From: a virus
Virus genome (UHGV): UHGV-0145753
Strand: one strand, 5' to 3'
DNA length: 11,086 nt
Shown here in pieces: positions 44 to 11,086 of this stretch. Numbering within the stretch: position 1 is the first letter of the stretch; every line of letters begins with the position of its first letter. Below the pieces are notes generated by a model that worked only from the letters and a program-made list of their open reading frames with translations, ran no database searches and was not told the origin of the DNA. Made by a program: the position numbers and the translations under genes.

Positions 44-3000
44 CCTGTAGAACAGCCCGATTCGGCTCAGTCAATGGCGCGCTGCCGCATGCTGCTGGCG
101 CTCGGGGAGGGGGAGTTTGCTGGTGGCCTGGATGCGACCCGGATATTCCTGGACGGTACGCCGTTGGGAAACCCCGACGGAACGATGAATTTTGAAAATG
201 TGTCATGGGATTTCCGGCCTGGCACACAGACCCAGACACCAATACCGGGATTCCCTGCAGTCGAGAATGAAACTACGGTTGGGGTATCGCTGACAAAGGC
301 CACACCATGGACCCGCGCACTGAGTAACACCCAGATTGACGCGGTGCTGGTTCGTATTGGCATCCCTGGGTTACAGCAGCAGGAAAACGATGGGGATATT
401 GTCGGCACTACGGTTCAGTACCATATTGATCTGGCGGTGGACGGTGGCGCTTACTCGACAGTCATGACGAAAACCGTCACAGAGAAGCTCAGCTCGCTCT
501 ATGAACTAACCCACCGTATTAATCTTCCCAAAGCCAGCACTGGCTGGCAAATTCGAGTGGTGCGTGACACCGATGACAGCACCAGCCAGATGCTGCAGAA
601 CAAAACGCAGGTGCAAGCGATTACTGAAGTGATCGATGCTCGCCTGCGATATCCACACACAGCGCTGCTGTACGTGTCCTTTAACGCAAAGTCATTCAAC
701 AACATCCCTAAGATTTCCTGCATGCCGAAGGGGCGCATCATCCGAATCCCTTCGAACTATGATCCAATAGCGCGGACTTATAGCGGAACATGGGACGGGA
801 CGTTTAAATGGGGCTGGACGAATAACCCGGCGTGGATTTGGTTCGATGTTCTGACTGAGCCGCGCTTCGGCCTTGGGCGCCGCGTGACGCCAGAAATGCT
901 CGATAAGTGGGAGCTCTATCGCATCGCCCAGCGCTGCGACCAGAAGGTACCCGACGGGAAAGGCGGAAGCGGTACCGAGCCACGCTTCATGTTTGACGTT
1001 TACATCCAGTCCCAGGCTGATGCCTGGCAGGTGATTAAAGATATTGCCGCGGGCTTCAACGGAATGACTTTCTGGGGCAACAACATGTTCAATGTTGTCT
1101 CTGACATGCCGGCGGACACTACGAAGTTGCAGATCCTCACTCGCGCATCAGTGGTGGGTAAGCCGGTGTACTCGAGTGGCAGTGAGAAAAACCGATTCTC
1201 CAGCGCGCTGATTAACTTCAGCGATCCGGATAACCACTACCAGGACCGCACCACGGCAGTGATGTTTCCGGAACTGGTAAGGCAGTTCAAGTTTAAGCAG
1301 ACACAAATCACTGCGATCGGTTGTACGCGTGAGAGCGAGGCGCAGCGGCGTGGCGGGTGGGCGGGGTATTCCAACTCCCTTGACCGCATTATCACGCTTC
1401 AGACTGGACTTGATGGCTTTGTATTTGTGCCGGGCACCGTATTTGCGTTTGCAGATGAACGCCTGTCAGGGCGCGTTTACGGCGGGCGTATCACCGGGTA
1501 TAACGCTGGTCTTAAGGCCGTGACCATTGACCGGGGCACCAGTGCGGTGGCGGGCGATACGCTGATGATTCGCACCCAGGGCGGTACCGTTGAAAGCCGG
1601 GTGATACAGGCCGTAAATGGCACGCAGCTGATCCTGTCCACGCCGTTCACGGCGGCGCCATTACCTAATGCCGTATTCGTCATTGATGCTGGTCAGCTGC
1701 GCCTGCAGTATTTCCGGGTAACGAACCTAAAATTTGATGATGAGGAAAACACCTTCACCATTACCGGTGCGGAGTATAACGCGTCGAAATACGACGCCGT
1801 TGATAACAACGCTCGCCTCGATACTCCTCCGATAAGCCTGATTCCGACCGGGCTAGTTAACCAGCCGACCAACATCGTGGTATCGAGCTATGATGCGGTT
1901 CGCCAGGGGCAACGCGTGGCCACGCTAACCGCCTCGTGGGATGCGCCAATTGATAAAGACGGCAAACTGCAGTCGGACGTAATAGCGTACCGGGCACAGT
2001 GGAAGCGCGGAAATAACGAATGGGTAAACGTGCCTGAAACCGGGTTACGAAATATCGAAGTGCCTGGCATTTTCGAGGGCGATTACCTTGTGCGCGTCCG
2101 TGCGATTAACTCTGGGGGAGCGTCCAGCCTTTGGGCCACGTCTGCGTTGACCCATCTTACCGGCCGCACCGGTGAAGTGCCCAAACCTGTCGGACTAACA
2201 GCAACAGAGGATGTTGTATTTGGGATCAACATTACATGGGGTTTCCCCGCAGATACCGCCGACACCCTGAGCACGGAACTGCAATACAGCGCTTCAGTCG
2301 ATGGGGCAAATCCAATGCTTTTGGCGTCGGTGCCGTATCCTCAGAAACTCTATCAGCAGATGGGGCTGAAGGCAGGGCAGGAATTCTGGTACCGGGCACG
2401 GCTGGTTGACCGCATCGGGAATCAGAGCGACTGGACAGACTGGGTGCGCGGGCAGGCCAGCATCGATGTTTCCGATATCACCGATGCAATCCTGGAGGAC
2501 ATGAAAGGCTCCGATACGTTCAAAGATCTGATCGAGAACGCGGTGGACAGCAACGAAAAAATTGCTGGCATGGCTAACGATATCAAACAGGCTAACGACG
2601 AACTGGAGCAGCAAGCGAAAGATATCGCCAAAAATGCCCAGGACGTAGGGAAGGTTCAGACCAGCGTTAATGAGCTTTCCAGCACGGTCGGGAATGTTTC
2701 GTCTTCACTCAGTCAGCTTGAGCAGACCGTTGCGACGGCTGATACCGCCCTGGGCCAGCGAATCGACAACATCAGCGTTTCTATGGACGGCATGACGGGC
2801 GGGGTGAAGAACTCTGCAATTGCGATAATCCAGGCAAACCTCGCTCAGGTGGCCACGCGTAAAACCCTTTCTGCATCGGTCGCCGGCAACAGCGCGAATC
2901 TGGACCGTATTGATGAGGTGATTGTCAACGACAGGGAGGCAACGGCGCGCTCGCTGCTGAGCCTGCAGACGGACGTTAACGGCAACAAGGCATCCATCAA

Positions 3001-3571
3001 CAGCCTGAACCAGACGTTCTCCGATTACCAGCAGGCTATGGCCACGCAGGTAAACAGCATCACGGCGACGGTGAACGGGCATACCTCAGCCATCACAACC
3101 AACGCTCAGGCTATAGCGAACGTAAACGGCGACCTCAGCGCGATGTACAACATCAAAGTTGGTGTCTCCAGCAACGGGCAGTATTACGCCGCGGGGATGG
3201 GTATCGGCGTGGAGAATACGCCATCAGGCATGCAGTCACAGGTAATCTTCCTGGCAGACCGTTTCGCCGTGACTACTATGGTCGGCGGGACTGTAACACT
3301 GCCGTTCGTTATCCAGAATGGCCAGGCCATTATCAGGGATACAGTCATTGGCGACGGGACCATAAGCAATGCAAAAATTGGCAATTACATCCAGTCGAAC
3401 AATTATGTTGCCGGCTCTGTTGGCTGGAAACTGGATAAGTCCGGGACGTTTGAGAACTACGGTTCGACAGCTGGGGAGGGAGCCATGAAGCAGACCAACC
3501 AGACAATCAGCGTCAAGGATGGCAACAACGTTCTGAGAGTGCAGGTTGGCCGATTAACGGGGGTGTTCTGA
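44..3571 (+). CDS. J: Phage host specificity / tail tip protein J (lambda gpJ family), 5'-truncated at the contig edge
   Basis: Long ORF whose translation aligns by eye with lambda gpJ from near its N-terminus (e.g. RIPSNYDPIARTYSGTWDGTF versus lambda LQVPSNYNPQTRQYSGIWDGTF). The ATG at 29 lies inside the adapter, so genuine coding sequence starts at 44 in the same frame and a few N-terminal codons are missing. Stop TGA at 3569-3571. Confidence 0.9.
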   Translation, partial: PVEQPDSAQSMARCRMLLALGEGEFAGGLDATRIFLDGTPLGNPDGTMNFENVSWDFRPGTQTQTPIPGFPAVENETTVGVSLTKATPWTRALSNTQIDAVLVRIGIPGLQQQENDGDIVGTTVQYHIDLAVDGGAYSTVMTKTVTEKLSSLYELTHRINLPKASTGWQIRVVRDTDDSTSQMLQNKTQVQAITEVIDARLRYPHTALLYVSFNAKSFNNIPKISCMPKGRIIRIPSNYDPIARTYSGTWDGTFKWGWTNNPAWIWFDVLTEPRFGLGRRVTPEMLDKWELYRIAQRCDQKVPDGKGGSGTEPRFMFDVYIQSQADAWQVIKDIAAGFNGMTFWGNNMFNVVSDMPADTTKLQILTRASVVGKPVYSSGSEKNRFSSALINFSDPDNHYQDRTTAVMFPELVRQFKFKQTQITAIGCTRESEAQRRGGWAGYSNSLDRIITLQTGLDGFVFVPGTVFAFADERLSGRVYGGRITGYNAGLKAVTIDRGTSAVAGDTLMIRTQGGTVESRVIQAVNGTQLILSTPFTAAPLPNAVFVIDAGQLRLQYFRVTNLKFDDEENTFTITGAEYNASKYDAVDNNARLDTPPISLIPTGLVNQPTNIVVSSYDAVRQGQRVATLTASWDAPIDKDGKLQSDVIAYRAQWKRGNNEWVNVPETGLRNIEVPGIFEGDYLVRVRAINSGGASSLWATSALTHLTGRTGEVPKPVGLTATEDVVFGINITWGFPADTADTLSTELQYSASVDGANPMLLASVPYPQKLYQQMGLKAGQEFWYRARLVDRIGNQSDWTDWVRGQASIDVSDITDAILEDMKGSDTFKDLIENAVDSNEKIAGMANDIKQANDELEQQAKDIAKNAQDVGKVQTSVNELSSTVGNVSSSLSQLEQTVATADTALGQRIDNISVSMDGMTGGVKNSAIAIIQANLAQVATRKTLSASVAGNSANLDRIDEVIVNDREATARSLLSLQTDVNGNKASINSLNQTFSDYQQAMATQVNSITATVNGHTSAITTNAQAIANVNGDLSAMYNIKVGVSSNGQYYAAGMGIGVENTPSGMQSQVIFLADRFAVTTMVGGTVTLPFVIQNGQAIIRDTVIGDGTISNAKIGNYIQSNNYVAGSVGWKLDKSGTFENYGSTAGEGAMKQTNQTISVKDGNNVLRVQVGRLTGVF

Positions 3572-3572
3572 T

Positions 3573-3875
3573 ATGGCTTATGGAATACAGACCTGGGATG
3601 CTTCGGGAAACCCCAACAACTACGGAATCAAGCCCGTTTCCGTTGTTGGACGTATACAACTTGCCGCCGGACAAAACTCCGGCAGCTGGTCTTTCACTGT
3701 ACCCTCAGGAATGAAGGTCGGTTTTGCGCTCTCACTTGATGAAGGAGGTAACAGCGTAGGGAGGAGCATTGTCGCGTCAGGGAACACAATAACCGTAACC
3801 GCAGCCTCTTCTGTGGGCCTGGGTAATTACCCGGCCTCTAAATGTGAGGTGGTCGTTTTCATGGAGAAAGCATAA
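3573..3875 (+). CDS. Hypothetical phage protein (tail-region accessory), 100 aa
   Basis: ORF starts 2 nt after the J stop with a G-rich Shine-Dalgarno-like stretch upstream; its stop overlaps the next start (TAATG). Shares a WDASG motif with the next ORF. Confidence 0.6.
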   Translation: MAYGIQTWDASGNPNNYGIKPVSVVGRIQLAAGQNSGSWSFTVPSGMKVGFALSLDEGGNSVGRSIVASGNTITVTAASSVGLGNYPASKCEVVVFMEKA

Positions 3876-4549
3876 TGGCCGAATTTGGCGCGATGATATT
3901 AATGGATAACGGGAATCCCTTTGTAACGCCACAATCAACGCCTTTCTGTCTTTACGGGAAGTATACCTTCAATTCATCCGCGAATGGCAGTTCTCAGCAG
4001 GTTGCTCAAAATATCGCTTTAAACGCTGATTACCCAGTGATGGTTTTTATCAAAACCACCAATACAGCACAGCCCACTCCGGTTATGTCTTACAGGAACG
4101 GCGGTAATGTGTATGTTGCTGGTGTTAATCCCTACAACCAAAGTTTCACTTTAACGGCGTACGTTTTTGCCATATTCCCGCAGATATTACCGAAATGGGG
4201 TTTGGCAATATGGGATGCGAGCGGAAAGCTTGTGTTAACTAATGAGTCCCGTGTGCTATCAGACCTGCAGACGGTTGGCACGCCTGGTGCAAACGGCGGG
4301 ATAAATATTGACCAGACGCTGAGCGGGTCATGGGCCGTTGCACCTGCTCAGTTGGGTCAGACCATCATTGTGAATAATTCAACCCGGCCTCCGACTATCT
4401 ACACGATAAATGCTTATTCTTCATGCAGGTTTGACGGGGCCAATACGAGGATAAACGCAGGGGGGACCTCCACTGGGGCAGGTTCACCTGGAGGGGGAAC
4501 GAATACTGGCATTTCATTAACCGCCATAAATACAGCGGCCTATGATTGA
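3875..4549 (+). CDS. Hypothetical phage protein, 224 aa, apparently two copies of the domain seen in the preceding ORF plus a Gly/Thr/Asn-rich C-terminus
   Basis: Start is translationally coupled to the upstream stop (TAATG). Contains AIWDASGKLVL mid-protein and a second weaker DNGNP-type motif near the N-terminus, resembling QTWDASGNP in the 100-aa ORF. Confidence 0.62.
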   Translation: MAEFGAMILMDNGNPFVTPQSTPFCLYGKYTFNSSANGSSQQVAQNIALNADYPVMVFIKTTNTAQPTPVMSYRNGGNVYVAGVNPYNQSFTLTAYVFAIFPQILPKWGLAIWDASGKLVLTNESRVLSDLQTVGTPGANGGINIDQTLSGSWAVAPAQLGQTIIVNNSTRPPTIYTINAYSSCRFDGANTRINAGGTSTGAGSPGGGTNTGISLTAINTAAYD

Positions 4550-4571
4550 TTGATCGTTTTTAGCGATCAAT
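4548..4571. promoter_or_regulatory. AT-rich palindrome ATTGATCG-N7-CGATCAAT with clustered GATC sites; candidate operator or promoter region for the downstream lipoprotein moron
   Basis: Perfect 8-bp inverted repeat (4549-4556 and 4564-4571) immediately after the stop of the 224-aa ORF. A third TTGATC copy lies at 4582-4587, giving three GATC sites within about 35 bp. No T-tract follows, so it is not a typical terminator. Confidence 0.3.
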
Positions 4572-4660
4572 AACATAATATTGATCTATCCAATCAATTA
4601 TACCCACCAGAATTGTATTGTTATCGTCTAAGATACTGAATTCCTCTGGATACTATCAAA

Positions 4661-4894
4661 ATGAGAAAACTGATTATCTGCATGGCAGGCGCTGTCATGC
4701 TTACAGGATGCGCTGGCGTAATTGAGAAACAGGAACCAGTTTGCAGCGGCACTGCAATCGTTGGCGGTCAGGAAACTACGGTTCAGATTTACGGTGTGCG
4801 TAAACAAAACAACCAGACGCAGTACCGGGCTGGATATCCTTTCAGCTGGCGCTGGGTAAGTGCGAATACATTTACCGAAACAACCTGCAAATAA
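4661..4894 (+). CDS. Small secreted lipoprotein (77 aa); position and size consistent with a Cor-like superinfection-exclusion lipoprotein
   Basis: N-terminus MRKLIICMAGAVMLTGCAG has a hydrophobic signal sequence followed by an L-T-G-C lipobox. The gene sits between J and the side tail fibre with its own AT-rich upstream region and a downstream terminator (moron-like). The Cor assignment rests on context only. Confidence 0.65.
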   Translation: MRKLIICMAGAVMLTGCAGVIEKQEPVCSGTAIVGGQETTVQIYGVRKQNNQTQYRAGYPFSWRWVSANTFTETTCK

Positions 4895-4915
4895 CCCACT
4901 ACGCTTAAACATAAA

Positions 4916-4938
4916 CCTCGCTCCGGCGGGGTTTTTTT
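4916..4938 (+). terminator. Putative rho-independent terminator after the lipoprotein gene
   Basis: GC-rich imperfect hairpin (cctcgctccggcgggg) immediately followed by a run of seven T (4932-4938). Confidence 0.5.
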
Positions 4939-4954
4939 ATTGCCTGGAGAAAAT

Positions 4955-5896
4955 ATGCTTTATAACACCGGCACCATCGCCATTAATGGAAATACCGCCA
5001 CCGGGACGGGTACAAACTGGACGGCACCGGCCAGCCAGGTCCGCGCTGGCCAGACGATTATCGTGATGTCTAACCCGGTGCAGCTGTTTCAGATTTCATC
5101 CGTGAACAGCGCCACGTCAATGACGGTAACGCCTGCTGCATCACCGGCGCTGAGCGGCCAGAAGTACGGCATTCTGGTATCAGACAATATCTCGGTTGAT
5201 GGGCTGGCGCTGGCCATGTCGCAGCTTATCAAGGAGTATGACGAGAATATTGGTGCGTGGGAGACGTTCGCCACAACCTCAGCCAACCAGAACATTACCG
5301 TTACGATCAATGGCACCAGTTTATCAATCCCGGCTCTTGGGAAATTACTGCAGAAGGGGAGCAACGGAGCTTTGCCGGTTAATCAAGGTGGTACCGGCGC
5401 AACGAATGCCGCAGACGCTCGCACAAACCTTGGTTTGGGAGAAGGTTCGGTGTTACCCGTTGGTGTGCCTGTTCCGTGGCCTGCAGCCACTCCGCCAACA
5501 GGCTGGCTGAAATGCAATGGTGCGGCTTTTTCTGCTGAAGAATACCCAGAACTGGCAAAGGCTTACCCGACAAATAAATTGCCTGATTTACGTGGTGAGT
5601 TTATGCGTGGCTGGGATGATGGAAGAGGCGTTGATAGTGGCAGGGGGATTCTCACTGCGCAATCTCATGGTATGCCGTCTATTTCAGGAACGTTTAATGG
5701 TCTTTTTGCTGTTAAACAAACAAATGGTTTAGGTGGTGTTTCTGTAGCAAAAAGTACAAATACTGAAACTTTATCTACTTCATCTGGATCAGGTTCCGTG
5801 TTTGATTACACGTTTAATGTCAGCGGTTCGACTCCGGTATCACCAGAACTTCGTCCGCGTAATATTGCATTTAACTATATCGTGAGGGCCGCATAA
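4955..5896 (+). CDS. Side tail fiber protein: constant N-terminal part (to about 5430) fused to the currently expressed variable C-terminal part carrying a phage tail-collar-like domain
   Basis: GGAG Shine-Dalgarno 7 nt upstream of ATG 4955 (the ORF-track start at 4940 is a TTG). The N-terminus MLYNTGTIAINGNTATGTGTNW is fibre-like, and the C-terminal motifs (PTGWLKCNGAAFSAEEYPELAKAY, LPDLRGEFMRGWDDGRG) are typical of tail-collar domains. The left inversion site lies in-frame at 5418-5443. Confidence 0.85.
   Translation: MLYNTGTIAINGNTATGTGTNWTAPASQVRAGQTIIVMSNPVQLFQISSVNSATSMTVTPAASPALSGQKYGILVSDNISVDGLALAMSQLIKEYDENIGAWETFATTSANQNITVTINGTSLSIPALGKLLQKGSNGALPVNQGGTGATNAADARTNLGLGEGSVLPVGVPVPWPAATPPTGWLKCNGAAFSAEEYPELAKAYPTNKLPDLRGEFMRGWDDGRGVDSGRGILTAQSHGMPSISGTFNGLFAVKQTNGLGGVSVAKSTNTETLSTSSGSGSVFDYTFNVSGSTPVSPELRPRNIAFNYIVRAA
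5418..5443. repeat. Left recombination site of the invertible segment (gix/hix/pix-like), crossover dinucleotide TT at 5430-5431
   Basis: CTCGCACAAACC-TT-GGTTTGGGAGAA. Positions 5430-5444 are the exact reverse complement of 7254-7268. The half-site resembles the Hin/Gin-type consensus (TTCTC..AAACC) as I recall it. It is embedded in-frame in the tail-fibre gene (codons N-L-G-L-G-E). Confidence 0.7.
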
Positions 5897-6498
5897 TGAA
5901 TAATGCAGAATTAAATAGTGAATTGATTGCTACTGCGGCAGGGAATATTACCGTTTATAACTATGATTGTGAAACACGAGAATATATTTCCACATCAACT
6001 GAATATCTTGCTGTGGGTGTCGGTATCCCGGCATGTTCCTGTCTGGATACACCAGGTATACATAAGGCGGGTTATGCAATATGCCGCTCTGTGGATTTAA
6101 ATTCATGGGAATATGTGCCAGACCATCGAGGTGAAATTGTCTATAGCACCGAAACGGGAGATACCAAAGAAATCACAGTGCCAGGCGACTATCCCGAAAA
6201 TACAACCACTATCGCCCCGTTAACGCCATACGATAAATGGGATGGTGAGAAATGGGTGACCGATATTGAGGCACAGCATAGCGCCGCAGTAGACGCGGCA
6301 GAAGCGCATCGCCAATCGCGGATTGATGCTGCAATGGCTTCCATCAGTCTGATTCAGCTGAAATTGCAGGCCGGACGTAAACTGACGCAGGCAGAAACAA
6401 CCCGGCTTAACGCTGTGCTGGATTACATTGACGCGGTGGTGGCAACAGATACCAGCACCGCGCCGGATGTCATCTGGCCTGAACTACCGGAGGCGTAG
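5896..6498 (+). CDS. tfa: Tail fiber assembly protein (Tfa chaperone) for the currently expressed fibre variant
   Basis: Start overlaps the fibre stop (TAATG) with a GAGGG Shine-Dalgarno upstream. C-terminal motif LDYIDAVVATDTSTAPDVIWPELP is typical of the conserved Tfa C-terminus. Confidence 0.8.
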   Translation: MNNAELNSELIATAAGNITVYNYDCETREYISTSTEYLAVGVGIPACSCLDTPGIHKAGYAICRSVDLNSWEYVPDHRGEIVYSTETGDTKEITVPGDYPENTTTIAPLTPYDKWDGEKWVTDIEAQHSAAVDAAEAHRQSRIDAAMASISLIQLKLQAGRKLTQAETTRLNAVLDYIDAVVATDTSTAPDVIWPELPEA

Positions 6499-6913
6499 GC
6501 CATTCAATATCTGGAGCACTGGAAATATCGACCATTTCCAGTGCATCCAGATAATCCAGCCACAAATTATATTGTGCCAGTTCCTCACCTTTCAGACGAC
6601 CGATAGCTGCTTTACCAGGCCATTGCTTACCGTTCATGTATTCGTTGGCATGGTCAATTCTCGACTTTTTCTCTGAGTCAGCCGCAGCAAGTTGTTCTTT
6701 ATGCGTAGGTGACGGAAGATCTACCCAGCAAGGCAACCCATCATCACCAATGCCACGCATTTTACCCTCAGGAGCGTTTCCCATGAAAACCAGTGCATCT
6801 TCAGCATCTATATTGATGCCGTCTGACGGCCATGTGCCAGCAGTTAAATAATCATATTTCAGTGCCACAAGATAAAAAGCATTTTCCGTCGGGCTGAATA
6901 CATAGTCGACCAT
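6470..6913 (-). CDS. tfa: Alternative tail fiber assembly protein (Tfa-alt), in the silent orientation
   Basis: Conserved Tfa-type C-terminus (LWLDYLDALEMVDISSAPDIEWPTPP). Preferred start is the ATG at 6913, which overlaps the Sv-alt stop in a TAATG junction mirroring the + strand arrangement and has a GGGAG upstream; the ORF-track start at 6931 would add 6 aa. Its 3' end overlaps the + strand tfa convergently by 29 bp. Confidence 0.72.
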   Translation of the reverse strand: MVDYVFSPTENAFYLVALKYDYLTAGTWPSDGINIDAEDALVFMGNAPEGKMRGIGDDGLPCWVDLPSPTHKEQLAAADSEKKSRIDHANEYMNGKQWPGKAAIGRLKGEELAQYNLWLDYLDALEMVDISSAPDIEWPTPPVVQAR

Positions 6914-7268
6914 TAATATCCCACTCCCCATACTGCCACTGTTGAATTAGATTTCGTGTATGCGCAAGCGGCTTTGAATTTGACCCGGTCAACAATCGCT
7001 GCGCTAACAAAAGGGGCTCCATTAGTCGCGTAGATCACAGAATTGACCAGCGAAGGATTGATGGAAAGGCAAGCATTAGGAAAGGCAACCGGCCATGAGC
7101 CATCAACAACGACCATATTACCGTCGGTAGATTGCGGCACTGATAGCGTCTTCCACTGAAGCAATGCTGTTCGTTGTACTCCACCAATTAATACTGGAAT
7201 AGTGATGTTACCTGCACTGCTGGCTAATGCTGTCGCAGCAGGCATTTTCGCTGCTTCTCCCAAACCAA
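6913..7268 (-). CDS. Alternative tail-fibre variable C-terminal cassette (Sv-alt), promoterless and startless; it would be fused in-frame to the constant part after inversion
   Basis: The minus-strand reading frame is open from the right inversion site to a stop at 6913-6915. Across the site it encodes V-G-L-G-E, matching L-G-L-G-E at the left site in the same codon phase, so recombination at the central dinucleotide keeps the frame. The ORF-track start at 7287 is a TTG beyond the crossover. Confidence 0.62.
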
Positions 7269-7280
7269 CCTTTTTTATAA
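7255..7280. repeat. Right recombination site of the invertible segment (gix/hix/pix-like), crossover dinucleotide AA at 7267-7268
   Basis: TTCTCCCAAACC-AA-CCTTTTTTATAA. Its left half and centre are the exact reverse complement of the left site's right half and centre. It lies about 60 bp upstream of the invertase start. Confidence 0.7.
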
Positions 7281-7339
7281 CCATCAAAAATCTGGTGATG
7301 CTTCGCCGTTTCTCCTGTTTTCATAACAGGAGAAATCCC

Positions 7340-7888
7340 ATGATTTACGGTTATGCCCGAGTATCAACAAACCACCAGGACACTGAATTGCAACTAACGG
7401 CGCTCAAGTCAGCGGGTTGTGAGAAAATTTTTGAAGAGCATGCCAGCGGGAGGAAATCGAATCGGCCGGTTCTAAAACGGCTGATCGCCACTATGCAGCC
7501 GGGGGATGAACTGGTGGTCTGGAAGCTGGACAGGATAGGCCGCAACGTTCTGCATGCGCTGTTGATGTTCCAGCAGTTACAGGAAAAGGGTATCAACTTC
7601 CGCAGTATTACCGATGGCGTGGATCTCAAAACAGCCAGCGGCCGCTATAACTTTCGTAACATCCTTTCCGCAGCACAATATGAATCTGATCTTAATAGCG
7701 AACGTACCTTAGCAGGGCTGGCCGTAGCCAGGGCAAAAGGGCGAGTTGGTGGTCGCAGGCCTAAGTTCACGGATGAGCAATGGCGGGAAATGGGGGAGCG
7801 GATGGCAACCGGTGAATCACGACAAAGCGTATCAAAAACGTATGGAGTAGGGCTCTCAACTCTGTATAAAAAGTTTCCAGCTAGCTGA
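7340..7888 (+). CDS. Site-specific DNA invertase, serine recombinase of the Hin/Gin/Cin/Pin family
   Basis: AGGAGA Shine-Dalgarno 7 nt upstream of ATG 7340. N-terminus MIYGYARVSTNHQDTELQ has the catalytic Ser at position 9 (Gin: MLIGYVRVSTNDQNTDLQ) and the C-terminal helix-turn-helix ends GLSTLYKKFPAS (Gin: ALSTLYKKHPAK). About 182 aa; the upstream in-frame extension in the ORF track (from 7202) overlaps the inversion site and is not used. Confidence 0.93.
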   Translation: MIYGYARVSTNHQDTELQLTALKSAGCEKIFEEHASGRKSNRPVLKRLIATMQPGDELVVWKLDRIGRNVLHALLMFQQLQEKGINFRSITDGVDLKTASGRYNFRNILSAAQYESDLNSERTLAGLAVARAKGRVGGRRPKFTDEQWREMGERMATGESRQSVSKTYGVGLSTLYKKFPAS

Positions 7889-7909
7889 TAACGGGAAAGA
7901 AACAGAGAA

Positions 7910-7950
7910 GGGCACAAATATTGTGTACTTTAATGTGCCCTTTAATTTAT
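7910..7950 (+). terminator. Putative terminator hairpin after the invertase gene
   Basis: Perfect 7-bp stem GGGCACA (7910-7916) and TGTGCCC (7934-7940) followed by a T-rich tract (tttaatttatt). The loop is long (17 nt) and contains a TGTGTAC motif, so this could instead be a protein-binding site. Confidence 0.4.
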
Positions 7951-8113
7951 TGATTGGTGGTTGAATTGTCCGTAACTTTTTGATTTAAGTGCAAATTTCT
8001 AATAAATTAGAACACTTTCTTAAATTGTCATTTGGCATATTACGAACAATTCCGCGTAAAAACGTTCTGTTACGCTAAACCCTTATCCAGCAGGCTTTCA
8101 AGGATGTAAACCA

Positions 8114-8136
8114 TAACACTCTGCGAACTAGTGTTA
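8114..8136. repeat. Inverted repeat TAACACT-N9-AGTGTTA; candidate att core-type site pair or operator
   Basis: Perfect 7-bp arms with a 9-bp spacer, inside the AT-rich intergenic region between invertase and integrase and about 30 bp upstream of the TGTGTAC repeats. Confidence 0.3.
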
Positions 8137-8164
8137 CATTGCGTGTAGCTTTGAGTGGGCAACT

Positions 8165-8207
8165 TTGTGTACACTTTTGTGTACCCAAAAACAAAAATGT
8201 GTACCCA
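8165..8207 (+). repeat. Three direct copies of a TGTGTAC(C) motif just upstream of the integrase start; candidate integrase arm-type or regulator binding sites
   Basis: TGTGTAC at 8166-8172 (within the palindrome GTGTACAC), 8178-8184 and 8198-8204. The last two are TGTGTACCCA 10-mers spaced 20 bp apart. A fourth TGTGTAC lies at 7922-7928 in the hairpin loop after the invertase. Confidence 0.45.
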
Positions 8208-8211
8208 TTCA

Positions 8212-9405
8212 ATGATCACCGACACAAAGCTCAGGAAGGCGCTCGGCAAGAAAAGAGATGATATCGAGATTATTTCTGATTCGCACGGGCTCAACGCCAG
8301 AATCAGCCAGGCCGGAAAAATATCATTTTTCTATCGGTATCGCTGGGCCGGTAAAGCGGTAAAACTCAATGTTGGTGATTATCCTGCAATGAGTATCACC
8401 CAGGCAAGAGAGCGTCGCCAACAATTCAGAAACTGGTTAACTGAGGGACTGGATCCGCGAGAGCAGGTGAAGCTGGATAAGCAGACCCGACAGGAAGCGA
8501 TGTCCGTTGCCGAAGCGTTCAATTACTGGATTGAAAGGCACTGTATCGCTAACGGGCTAGTTAAAGTCGATTACTATCGCCAGGTGTTTGAGAAACATAT
8601 CGCCGAACCGATGAAGAATGTCAAAGTCGATAACACAGCGAAAATGCACTGGATCAACGTCTTCGATTCTATAGAAAGCAGGGTGATGGCTCATTACATG
8701 CTTTCGCTGTGCAAACGGGCGTTTAGGTTCTGCGTTAACAGAAGTGTGATCGCCTCAAACCCACTCGAGGGATTACTGCCATCTGATGTCGGGCAAAAGC
8801 CTAAAAAGAGAACTCGCAGGATGGACGATGACGATCTGCGCAAAATCTATCAGTGGTTGAAAAGCCATATGTCGATAGAGTCCGTTTTCCTGGTGAAATT
8901 TATTATGCTTACCGGATGCCGTACGGCTGAGATTCGACTTAGTGAGAGATCATGGTTTCGATTGGATGATAATGAGTGGGTCGTGCCTGCGGGCAGTTAT
9001 AAAACTCGGGTACATATTAGAAGGGGGCTCTCAGACGCCGCCGTTAACTTGGTCAGAAATCACCTCAAGAAAATAAACACCAATCACCTGGTGACTTCAC
9101 AACGTAAAATTGATGGCGGGATCAAAGATTCGCCCGTTCATTCACCTGTGGCATCCAATTACGCCCGTTCTATTTGGAATGGAACAGGTATGGCAGAGTG
9201 GTCGCTTCATGATATGAGGCGGACGATAGCCACAAATCTCTCTGAGTTAGGTTGCCCGCCGCACGTAATTGAAAAGCTACTTGGTCATCAGATGGTCGGT
9301 GTAATGGCTCACTACAATCTGCACGACTACATCGATGACCAAAAACACTGGCTCCACGTTTGGCAGAGCCATCTTGAAAGTATCATTGGTGAGCCATTCA
9401 GTTAA
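8212..9405 (+). CDS. int: Tyrosine site-specific integrase, P4-type (N-terminal arm-binding domain plus C-terminal catalytic domain)
   Basis: N-terminus [17 protein letters not shown]...[23 protein letters not shown]...[18 protein letters not shown] fits the P4-integrase arm-binding pattern. The C-terminus has the catalytic signature ([19 protein letters not shown]...AHY). Start chosen at ATG 8212; the ORF track begins at an upstream GTG (8155) that would put the repeats inside the coding sequence. No strong Shine-Dalgarno at either. Confidence 0.9.
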
Positions 9406-9598
9406 TTGGCTGTTTCACACCTTCCCACTCTTTGACTGACTCCGACTTCCAGCGGTTTGGGTTACCAGGAAAATCAGGAGCAGGGAACGGCTTCGCAAAA
9501 CCCCGCGGCATAGTTTCTGTGCTTTGCCATGACCAAAGGGTTTTACGTGAGATTTTGTATCGACTGGTCAGGTCTGACGTCAGCAAAATATCATCCAT
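9398..9598 (-). CDS. AlpA/Xis-like small helix-turn-helix protein (putative excisionase or recombination directionality factor, or transcriptional regulator)
   Basis: 66 aa with GGAG Shine-Dalgarno 9 nt upstream. The pattern ...[11 protein letters not shown]...FPAP..........W....VKEW resembles AlpA (..RATIYDWL..ATFPKK......W.EAEIDEWL). It is convergent with int and overlaps its 3' end by 8 bp. Confidence 0.55.
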
Positions 9599-9609
9599 CG
9601 TTTTTCTCC

Positions 9610-9630
9610 AATGGCCCGTACTGGGCCATT
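9610..9630. promoter_or_regulatory. Perfect palindrome AATGGCCC-N5-GGGCCATT just upstream of the AlpA-like gene; candidate operator or mRNA hairpin
   Basis: 8-bp arms with a 5-nt spacer in the 45-bp gap between the hypothetical gene ending at 9644 and the AlpA-like start at 9598. It is not followed by a U-run on the coding (minus) strand. Confidence 0.35.
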
Positions 9631-9643
9631 TATAAAAGTAATA

Positions 9644-9886
9644 TCAACTCACCTGACCCGGCAGCGCTCGCAATCTGCGCATGCCTGTCATCGCCGTGGC
9701 CACGTAACTCGCCTTGCGGTTCACTACCTCCACCCAGACCTTCACACCTTCAACTCTCACCGTGTACGTTTCCTTCATCTTGCTGCGTCCGTAGTCGCCG
9801 TAGCGTTCGTGATGAGTGGCCAGCGCGATGTCGCATGCCTGACGCGCTATCGGGGATTGCTGATTGCCGCGGTTAATCAGTTTCAT
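9644..9886 (-). CDS. Hypothetical protein, 80 aa
   Basis: The ATG at 9886 overlaps the stop of the upstream gene (ATGA), indicating translational coupling within a minus-strand operon. No recognisable motifs. Confidence 0.45.
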   Translation of the reverse strand: MKLINRGNQQSPIARQACDIALATHHERYGDYGRSKMKETYTVRVEGVKVWVEVVNRKASYVATAMTGMRRLRALPGQVS

Positions 9887-10077
9887 GCTTCACCGCCATC
9901 TGGGTTGGATGATTGACGGAAAATTGCTCGGGACGGCGACCAATCGCAATATGTATCAGTTTCGGTATGCCCGAAAATTGTCTTACAGCGGCGGATATGG
10001 GCGCAGTCGCCGCAAGTCTTACCCTTCGGGAGTTTCATTTTGTCGGGGTCTGCCGGGTTATAATTCAGCTCAGTCAT
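9883..10077 (-). CDS. Hypothetical small Cys-containing protein, 65 aa (possible zinc-binding)
   Basis: Preferred start is the ATG at 10077, with GGAGG 8 nt upstream, overlapping the stop of the upstream gene (ATGACTGA); the ORF track extends it to 10221 in a region that overlaps that gene. Contains C-x2-C-x5-C-x12-C (CGDCAHIRRC...YC). Confidence 0.45.
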   Translation of the reverse strand: MTELNYNPADPDKMKLPKGKTCGDCAHIRRCKTIFGHTETDTYCDWSPSRAIFRQSSNPDGGEA

Positions 10078-10414
10078 TCCAGGCCTCCAGCTCGTTCTGA
10101 ATTTCCTCGTCGATCTCGTCATTGGTGGCATCATGATTGAGATATGTGAGAGCTTCTTTCCGATACTGTGCGCGGCGTTCGCTGTACCATGCTGAAAACT
10201 CAGGTGACCAGCCTCGACCATTACCCTGAAAATCTACAAGAGCGTTGTCCTCTGCCATGCGCTCAACCATGCAGTCGGCAGTTGTCAGGGCGCACTCACG
10301 GATATACCGGCGTAGATCCCGCTTGCGCCAGTACGGGCTATATTTCGAGTCGCAACGACCTTTAAATTCGACGGCCCAGCGACGGATGCAACGTGCATTT
10401 AATGATTTGCTCAT
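10070..10414 (-). CDS. Hypothetical protein, 114 aa, with an acidic C-terminus
   Basis: ORF in the same minus-strand operon, with its stop overlapping the next start. A GC-rich hairpin lies just upstream of its start. No recognisable family. Confidence 0.5.
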   Translation of the reverse strand: MSKSLNARCIRRWAVEFKGRCDSKYSPYWRKRDLRRYIRECALTTADCMVERMAEDNALVDFQGNGRGWSPEFSAWYSERRAQYRKEALTYLNHDATNDEIDEEIQNELEAWND

Positions 10415-10421
10415 CTCGTTA

Positions 10422-10443
10422 CCGGGAGGGCGAACCCTCCCGC
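10422..10443. promoter_or_regulatory. GC-rich hairpin CGGGAGGG-cgaa-CCCTCCCG in a 34-bp intergenic gap
   Basis: Perfect 8-bp stem with a 4-nt loop between the partial upstream ORF (stop 10449-10451) and the start at 10414. No U-run on either strand, so it is not a classical terminator. Confidence 0.35.
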
Positions 10444-10448
10444 CTCCC

Positions 10449-11086
10449 TCAGCCCACGTATTCCGGTTTCATATCTGCCAGGGTAATGCTGAACTTATCG
10501 TGCAGCTCGTCGCCCAGATGACGTTTCGCCGTTGCCAGAACTCGCTCAACTTCCCCGAAACGCGCTGCTGCATCCGGTTCGTCCGGAGACGGTAGGGAGT
10601 TGATCGCGGCCTCAACCTTGTTACGTGAATCAACCAGGTAATAGCGTTTTACTGCTTTGTTCTTCAGTTCGGTGAACAGGGCTGAACCCAGTGTGGCCTT
10701 CGCACTTTCGATATCAGCGCGTAGTGCTTTGGCGCTATCAACATCCTGTGCGGCATCGATGCGTTCGCGGAAACCATCTGCCAGTGAGTCGATGTTTCCT
10801 GATTTTTCCTGCTTGCTCTGCGTGGTTGTTATGGTGTCACCTGAAATTTCAGACAGGCTAACGTGTTGCGCCGGAGCAGGGTTAACTTCTCGCTCTTCAC
10901 GGCGATCATCCAGTTCATCAGGGGTATACACGCCGAGAATTACATCCGGGCAGAACAGTCTCGCCCAACGTTTCACGGCGAGATAAGCGAGCTGCTGGCG
11001 AGGGTCGTCAGCCCAAAGCGTTGAATTACGAGTCCTGGCCTGTGCCAGTAGCAGGTCAAGTTCCCTCGGTTGATCTTCACCTTTCA
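10449..11086 (-). CDS. Hypothetical protein, 5'-partial (reading frame open to the window end)
   Basis: The minus-strand frame has no stop from 11086 down to the stop at 10449-10451. The ORF-track start at 10976 is a GTG and the frame continues upstream (...LWADDPRQQLAYLA), so the gene begins beyond the window. Charged, Ala-rich, helical-looking sequence; function not recognised. Confidence 0.5.
   Translation of the reverse strand, partial: KGEDQPRELDLLLAQARTRNSTLWADDPRQQLAYLAVKRWARLFCPDVILGVYTPDELDDRREEREVNPAPAQHVSLSEISGDTITTTQSKQEKSGNIDSLADGFRERIDAAQDVDSAKALRADIESAKATLGSALFTELKNKAVKRYYLVDSRNKVEAAINSLPSPDEPDAAARFGEVERVLATAKRHLGDELHDKFSITLADMKPEYVG

Follow-up and report, generated by a model that had tools for sequence, protein, structure and literature searches.

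Temperate phages make small early proteins that they can do without, for instance those encoded in the lambda exo-xis region. Such proteins have repeatedly turned out to reprogram central host machines, and most of them are uncharacterised. TraR has two CxxC pairs with the spacing C-x2-C-x17-C-x2-C. In Ogr/Delta (PF04606) the spacing is C-x2-C-x22-C-x4-C. Lar/RalR is encoded in the Rac prophage immediately downstream of recT, on the xis-int side. Orf73/TraR and other proteins of the lambda exo-xis region are small, contain zinc and dock on host machines, which in the case of Orf73/TraR is RNA polymerase (PMC8614690, PMC9239242). The hallmarks of TraR/DksA are two CxxC pairs and an N-terminal helix with an acidic DxxDxA tip (PMC8614690). 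Orf73, with a TraR/DksA C4 finger, and Ea8.5, a homeodomain/zinc-finger hybrid (PDB 2M7A), are products of small non-essential early genes located between the recombination genes and xis.

The gene analysed here occupies the same niche. Its product, the Cys4 protein, is similar to Orf73 and Ea8.5 in size (all have about 60-90 residues) and in having a cysteine-based metal site, which is predicted in the case of the Cys4 protein. However, neither of the two shows sequence or fold similarity to it. An identity with TraR/DksA was rejected, as the Cys4 protein has no Pfam match, no second CxxC pair and no DxxDxA helix. The Ea8.5 fold was rejected in the absence of sequence or fold similarity to the solved homologues (PDB 2M7A). 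Lar/RalR (PF14354) also has 64 residues and is rich in cysteines, but its sequence is unrelated. It is a classical two-knuckle zinc ribbon, and the Cys4 protein has no PF14354 match. No evidence of restriction alleviation or toxicity was found for the Cys4 protein in this analysis. The initial annotation had set the protein apart from Ogr/Delta, and our results agree: the cysteine spacing differs and no Pfam match is found at E <= 0.1.

Three identically spaced cysteines and a remote fourth are also found in the CX2CX5C iron-sulfur sites of RseC, NUBP1, Dna2/AddB/Cas4, WhiB-like and SPASM proteins, with no detectable homology to the Cys4 protein. In WhiB, Cas4, AddB and EndoIII, as well as in Dna2, the remote cysteine is N-terminal to the others, whereas the remote C44 of the Cys4 protein is C-terminal to them, after 12 residues. 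WhiB-like proteins (PF02467) have the order C-x(14-22)-C-x2-C-x5-C and a G(V/I)WGG turn. Assignment to this family was rejected: there is no Pfam match, the hhalign probability against WhiB1 is 0.2%, and the remote cysteine is on the opposite side. The RseC N-terminal domain was rejected as well, with an hhalign probability of 0.3% and only a 13-residue cysteine segment aligned. Both target sequences in these hhalign comparisons were entered by hand rather than taken from a database.

We analysed an 11,086-nucleotide stretch of the virus genome UHGV-0145753, hereafter called the window. It is a piece of a phi80-like lambdoid phage. The region from about 2351 to 9881 is 95% identical to mEp237, 97% to HK225 and 91% to phi80. 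The gene for the tail tip protein is followed by a side tail fibre with an invertible segment and a Pin-type invertase, the attP core and int. After int, on the other strand, are xis, the DUF4060 gene, the Cys4 gene, a gene for a 114-residue protein, and recT. E. coli prophages with the same module have recE after recT (RefSeq RecT, RecE), and the element is integrated beside kch. The Cys4 gene is thus part of the leftward early operon, with the recombination genes on one side and xis on the other. This location corresponds to the exo-xis region of lambda and the 'ea' region of P22. The features of this part of the window are listed in Table 1.

Table 1. Features of the Cys4 gene and its surroundings, in window coordinates.
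Feature	Position	Strand	Evidence
Excisionase, end of the leftward early operon	9398..9598	(-)	phrog_1553, E 1e-32; annotations of phi80 and mEp237
DUF4060 protein, 80 aa, downstream neighbour	9644..9886	(-)	Pfam PF13269, E 4e-35
ATGA, stop of the Cys4 gene and start of the DUF4060 gene, 4-nt overlap	9883..9886	(-)	ORF list, sequence
Cys4 CDS, 64 aa, including TGA stop at 9883-9885	9883..10077	(-)	translation, phrog_10154 match, homologues, purifying selection
Cys4 motif C22-x2-C25-x5-C31-x12-C44, followed by the near-invariant DWSPSR	9946..10014	(-)	homologues, A2 alignment, AlphaFold
ATGACTGA, start of the Cys4 gene and stop of the 114-aa gene, 8-nt overlap	10070..10077	(-)	ORF list, sequence
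114-aa protein phrog_6675, upstream neighbour, no assigned function	10070..10414	(-)	PHROG match over full length
Shine-Dalgarno GGAGG, 6 nt before ATG 10077	10084..10088	(-)	read from sequence
recT 3' part, runs off the window; marks the upstream recombination module of the same operon	10449..11086	(-)	phrog_561, E 9e-62

The product of the Cys4 open reading frame is MTELNYNPADPDKMKLPKGKTCGDCAHIRRCKTIFGHTETDTYCDWSPSRAIFRQSSNPDGGEA, read on the minus strand from the ATG at 10077. The initial annotation counted 65 residues; the open reading frame itself was correct, and the count corresponds to 65 codons, that is 64 residues and the stop. The four cysteine codons are at 10012-10014, 10003-10005, 9985-9987 and 9946-9948, exactly in the pattern first reported. 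Translational coupling to both neighbours, proposed at the same time, is borne out by the overlaps in Table 1. The Cys4 gene starts at the stop codon of an upstream open reading frame in 100 of 119 dereplicated related loci; in 98 of these it overlaps that frame by 1-13 nt, and in the other two it starts 2 nt after the stop. The region contains no promoter or terminator of the gene's own, and no structured RNA, beyond the shuffled expectation.

The Cys4 open reading frame is a genuine, conserved gene under purifying selection. We compared the core in 103 distinct nucleotide sequences. Codon positions 1, 2 and 3 differ 29k, 30k and 100k times, respectively, and the ratio of synonymous to non-synonymous changes in single-change codons is 6:1. 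The possibility that the frame is not the gene, either as a chance frame in the shadow of coding or regulatory sequence or as the C-terminal part of a 112-residue protein starting at 10221, derives from a longer in-frame open reading frame (9883-10221) and from plus-strand frames that overlap the region. In addition to the codon statistics, the homologues share the same start methionine, and no Rfam family matches the region. The initial annotation had asked whether 10221 might be the true start. That start has no Shine-Dalgarno sequence and would overlap the 114-residue gene, which matches phrog_6675 from end to end. In relatives, the in-frame extension upstream of the Cys4 ATG is missing or has a length anywhere between 0 and about 100 codons, and the RefSeq form in E. 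coli has 64 residues. We rejected the start at 10221. On the comparative evidence the conservation data already refute this reading, and we give it hardly any weight.

The Cys4 protein belongs, as judged by profile comparison, to PHROG 10154. The profile match is full-length (E 3e-33, or 3.1e-33 unrounded), with residues 1-58 aligned to positions 5-62 of 63. Neither a functional annotation nor a structure exists for this family, and neither Pfam nor NCBIfam has a model of it. An identical protein is found on 629 contigs under the label 'hypothetical protein [Enterobacteriaceae]', and the exact protein is common in clinical E. coli, Citrobacter and Klebsiella. There are 213 close relatives at 90% clustering. 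A profile search of 1.84 billion cluster representatives with a cut-off of E <= 1e-3 matched 1409 clusters at 50% identity. The hosts are gamma-, beta- and some alpha-proteobacteria, in whose prophages the gene is found.

In a shuffled window, 0.017 occurrences of the exact motif would be expected. For a loose four-cysteine pattern 1.6 occurrences are expected and three are seen, which makes the motif alone weak evidence. Conservation decides this point, and the initial annotation had proposed it as a check. Among the matches listed, 120 of 120 close relatives have the motif. C-x2-C-x5-C-x11-13-C is kept in 138 of 145 new distant cluster representatives inspected. Among the seven that depart from it, the majority seem to be truncated or to have a frameshift after the third cysteine. 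One of the seven has Glu in place of the third cysteine, and another has a one-residue insertion after the second. We defined the family by C-x2-C-x5-C-x(11-13)-C followed by (D/G)(W/F)xP, and the window protein has this pattern.

In close relatives almost all residues from L4 to R50 are conserved, with the consensus LNYDPxDPDKMxLPxGxTCGDCxHIRRCKAIFGHTETDTYCDWSPSRF. Copies from Enterobacteriaceae, Bordetella and Rhodanobacter are about 65-87% identical to one another, and near-identical copies are also found in Pectobacterium. We also assembled a diverse alignment, A2, of 63 members with 34-67% identity. Its invariant columns are L16 and the four cysteines alone, and M14, P17, G19, T21, G36, D45, P48 and F51 are near-invariant. 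With the four cysteines as the conserved core of these alignments, the protein very likely has a metal site. Across the wide family many members have other residues at the positions of His27 and His37, which indicates a Cys4 rather than a CCHC site.

Some members contain additional cysteines. In one subfamily the N-terminus is extended by GCCxDKxCx4C(M)xLP, which adds four cysteines, and CDWFPRRF replaces CDWSPSRF (hits P0158, P0174, P0177, P0188, P0189, P0198, P0200, P0201, P0232, P0237 and P0247). Some other members have extra zinc-ribbon-like tails, CxGCG...CGH. Going by sequence, these extensions and tails suggest a second metal site in some lineages.

The Cys4 gene is located in a mosaic region. 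DNA similarity to phi80, mEp237 and HK225 stops at 9881-9893, the zone of the Cys4 stop codon, and the Cys4 gene is missing from all three phages. Similarity to Klebsiella and Yersinia phages starts at 10070, the stop of the 114-residue gene. Both breakpoints are at or within about 10 nt of gene boundaries. In mEp237 the DUF4060 gene is joined directly to recT, without the cassette of about 560 bp that contains the Cys4 and 114-residue genes. In other phages, which have the 114-residue gene but lack the Cys4 gene, an EaA-like gene comes next and overlaps it by the same 8 nt.

Among the 119 dereplicated loci, an integrase is found downstream, within about 1 kb, in 59. Upstream of the gene, 31 loci have RecT, 27 have RecE, and 26 have a cI-like repressor at a distance of about 4 kb. 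In contrast, the genes directly next to it fall into 29 unrelated clusters upstream and 37 downstream, which rules out a conserved partner gene. The absence of the Cys4 gene from relatives and the swapped neighbours indicate that it is dispensable for the phage life cycle and has no dedicated partner. As far as gene content can tell, the Cys4 gene is a single-gene mosaic unit, dispensable and with no fixed partner. A plasmid leading-region context was also considered and rejected, with only three weak plasmid matches.

Several smaller observations concern the neighbouring genes. The 114-residue protein also has four cysteines, C9, C21, C41 and C48. A GC-rich hairpin, CCGGGAGGG-cga-ACCCTCCCG, is located at 10422-10442, after recT ends (10449) and before the 114-residue gene begins (10414). 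The same kind of hairpin is found at the junction of recT and the next gene in mEp237 and in E. coli KL53. Its role could be in the stability or processing of the RNA, or in translation. In a Bordetella genomosp. 9 prophage (L006/L007 5006-6004), a gene with a Lar_restr_allev domain is located directly upstream of the Cys4 homologue and is ATGA-coupled to it. This is a possible hint of an anti-restriction neighbourhood, in one lineage only.

Some properties of the protein differ from those first proposed. It had been described as small and basic, but its pI is 6.7 and its net charge is about 0, with nine Lys and Arg residues against nine Asp and Glu residues; the median pI of the family is 6.5. 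Only residues 13-37 are basic, with a charge of +6. With the diverse alignment, AlphaFold2 gave pLDDT values of 87-92 for residues 21-50. Two AlphaFold2 models agree on a turn at C22-D24, a helix at residues 28-34 that carries C31, and C44 in an extended segment. Around the cysteines are conserved aromatic residues, namely Y6, F35, Y43, W46 and F51. With so little regular structure in the core of about 45 residues, a bound metal would be expected to hold the fold together.

A zinc ribbon binds one Zn(II) and has two CxxC (or CxxH) knuckles, each at the turn of a beta-hairpin, with the hairpins making up a small sheet. Classical zinc ribbons and the Cys4 protein alike have four cysteines in a small protein. 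However, the Cys4 protein has a single CxxC pair, C22-x2-C25, and its third ligand is borne by a helix. C31 and C44 are 12 residues apart, so the spacing is not zinc-ribbon-like as had been suggested. The structure prediction does not support a zinc-ribbon fold either: it consists of one helix and loops, and the higher-confidence model contains no beta-hairpins. No zinc-ribbon Pfam or fold match was found, and we rejected this architecture.

Searches for relatives of known function gave no match. Pfam, NCBIfam and PADLOC contain no family for the Cys4 protein or for 63 diverse relatives. In Pfam the protein itself has no match at E <= 0.1, and the A2 members have none below E = 0.01. Sub-threshold Pfam matches recur in A2, to FhuF_C in five members and to RseC_MucC in two of the 63, all with E >= 0.04 (E >= 0.13 for RseC_MucC). 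The PADLOC defence models match neither the Cys4 protein nor its two neighbours. Neither phmmer nor a profile search gave a match to a PDB sequence below E 0.3, and a fold comparison of the predicted Cys4 structure found no match. Ten longer members were inspected for fused domains, and no Pfam domain was found in them except for one weak Zn_ribbon_3 match. In a second large protein search every named distant relative was a 'hypothetical protein'. Literature searches on DUF4060, exo-xis zinc proteins and phage iron-sulfur mini-proteins yielded nothing on the Cys4 family. Within the databases searched, the family has no detectable relative with known function or fold.

These results are most compatible, in our tentative judgement, with a structural Zn(II) module that binds protein and acts on a conserved host factor. 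The stand-alone 64-residue accessory protein would be translated by coupling in the leftward early operon (recE-recT ... xis). Its core of about 45 residues, from M14 to F51, would wrap one metal centre formed by C22, C25, C31 and C44. Three of the ligands would be close together and one remote, in a fold of one short helix and loops. The small rigid module would dock on a host component that is conserved across proteobacteria, and docking may modulate host physiology or the programme of lysis-lysogeny and induction. The extreme conservation, together with the unrelated neighbours, points to a conserved external host target and to a protein that acts alone, without a dedicated partner. We infer that the protein binds a metal and that it works by binding protein, and infer likewise which metal and which target are involved. 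An adaptor of the Orf73 type, stabilised by a metal and placed on a host machine, is a plausible working model; the analogy would be functional and not evolutionary.

The choice of metal distinguishes this reading from one in which a [4Fe-4S] or [2Fe-2S] cluster has C22, C25, C31 and the remote C44 as its ligands. The Cys4 protein would then be a minimal iron-sulfur protein, either a sensor of redox state, oxygen, NO or iron or an electron carrier, and would tie early development or induction to the redox state of the host. Three close cysteines and one remote one are the classic iron-sulfur pattern, and among the proteins compared the CX2CX5C 3+1 layout is mainly an iron-sulfur signature, which weighs against the zinc module. 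CX2CX5C is found in RseC (PMC11729352), NUBP1 (PMC8007109), Dna2 (PMC3439918) and SPASM/Twitch proteins (PMC5715301). The recurring weak Pfam matches are to iron-sulfur families only, namely FhuF_C (2Fe-2S), RseC_MucC and Fer4_Nqo3, although none of these sequence matches is significant. The loop-rich predicted fold, the conserved aromatic residues by the cysteines and the subfamily with four extra N-terminal cysteines are also in keeping with a cluster. However, no A2 member has a significant match to any iron-sulfur family, the hhalign probabilities for RseC and WhiB1 are those given above, and the remote cysteine is on the other side from that in WhiB, Cas4, AddB and EndoIII. An exposed cluster in a protein of about 7 kDa would be oxygen-labile, and the hosts are mostly aerobic or facultative. 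The small Cys4 phage proteins so far characterised in this genomic region bind zinc; these include lambda exo-xis Orf73 and Ea8.5 (PMC8614690). DnaI binds zinc with a CX2CX5C sequence (PMC1636449), and the extra CxGCG...CGH tails in some members also favour zinc. By a narrow margin we favour zinc over an iron-sulfur cluster, and regard the cluster as possible but doubtful. More doubtful still is the broader proposal of an unrecognised class of minimal iron-sulfur proteins in temperate proteobacterial phages. Such proteins, with a core of about 45 residues and a new fold, would sense redox state, oxygen or iron, or hijack a conserved host process, and would bias lysis-lysogeny or induction.

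The initial annotation had proposed a zinc-binding, nucleic-acid-binding protein or regulator. Of this proposal the conserved four-cysteine core stands, with a metal site that is very likely, while the ribbon fold and the basic charge do not. A zinc-ribbon-type basic regulator could be, for instance, an Ogr/Com-like transcription factor with DNA or RNA of the phage or the host as its target. Such a protein would agree with the four conserved cysteines and with the location of the gene in the regulatory early part of the genome. The locally basic segment from K13 to H37 could possibly contact nucleic acid; in close relatives R30 is invariant, and K13 and R50 are near-invariant. Against this, the protein as a whole is neutral, it has only one CxxC knuckle and no predicted beta-hairpins, and there is no zinc-ribbon, Ogr_Delta, TraR or HTH match and no fold match. 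Its neutral charge and the lack of any DNA-binding fold speak against a regulator of the classical type that binds nucleic acid. The neighbouring genes vary greatly, with no conserved adjacent target site or partner gene. We consider such a regulator unlikely. The probability that remains belongs to other readings.

The Cys4 family is one of many conserved phage 'hypothetical proteins', and small metal-binding accessory proteins are already known in kind. It stands out by its size (about 1400 clusters at 50% identity), by 65-87% identity between gamma- and beta-proteobacterial copies in mosaic regions, by its iron-sulfur-like layout and by having no fold relative. Such conservation implies a precise, widely shared target. 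Identification of the target and the metal would add a new small metalloprotein fold, and could also give a new lever on prophage induction in Enterobacteriaceae, among them clinical E. coli, Citrobacter and Klebsiella. The interest would be greater if the metal is an iron-sulfur cluster or if a conserved host target is found.

Other features are found elsewhere in the window. The exact phi80 attP core, AACACTTTCTTAAATTG, is present at 8011-8027, between the invertase and int. The intact core indicates that the window is in the phage (attP) configuration, as opposed to the junction of an integrated prophage. The two arms of a 20-nt inverted repeat, at 5425-5444 and 7254-7273 and 90% complementary, flank a segment of about 1.8 kb. 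This segment contains the 3' end of the tail-fibre gene, a tail-fibre assembly gene (5896-6498) and alternatives in the opposite orientation (6470-6931 and 6913-7287). A Pin/Gin-type serine invertase gene (7340-7888) adjoins it. It looks like an invertible segment for host-range switching, comparable to phi80 pinL. Between the tail genes and the side tail fibre, an open reading frame of 77 residues at 4661-4894 on the plus strand starts with a lipoprotein signal (MRKLIICMAGAVMLTGC...). In relatives, annotations somewhere in the matched region include 'membrane associated protein' and, in HK106, 'Cor protein'. The 77-residue product could be a superinfection-exclusion lipoprotein.
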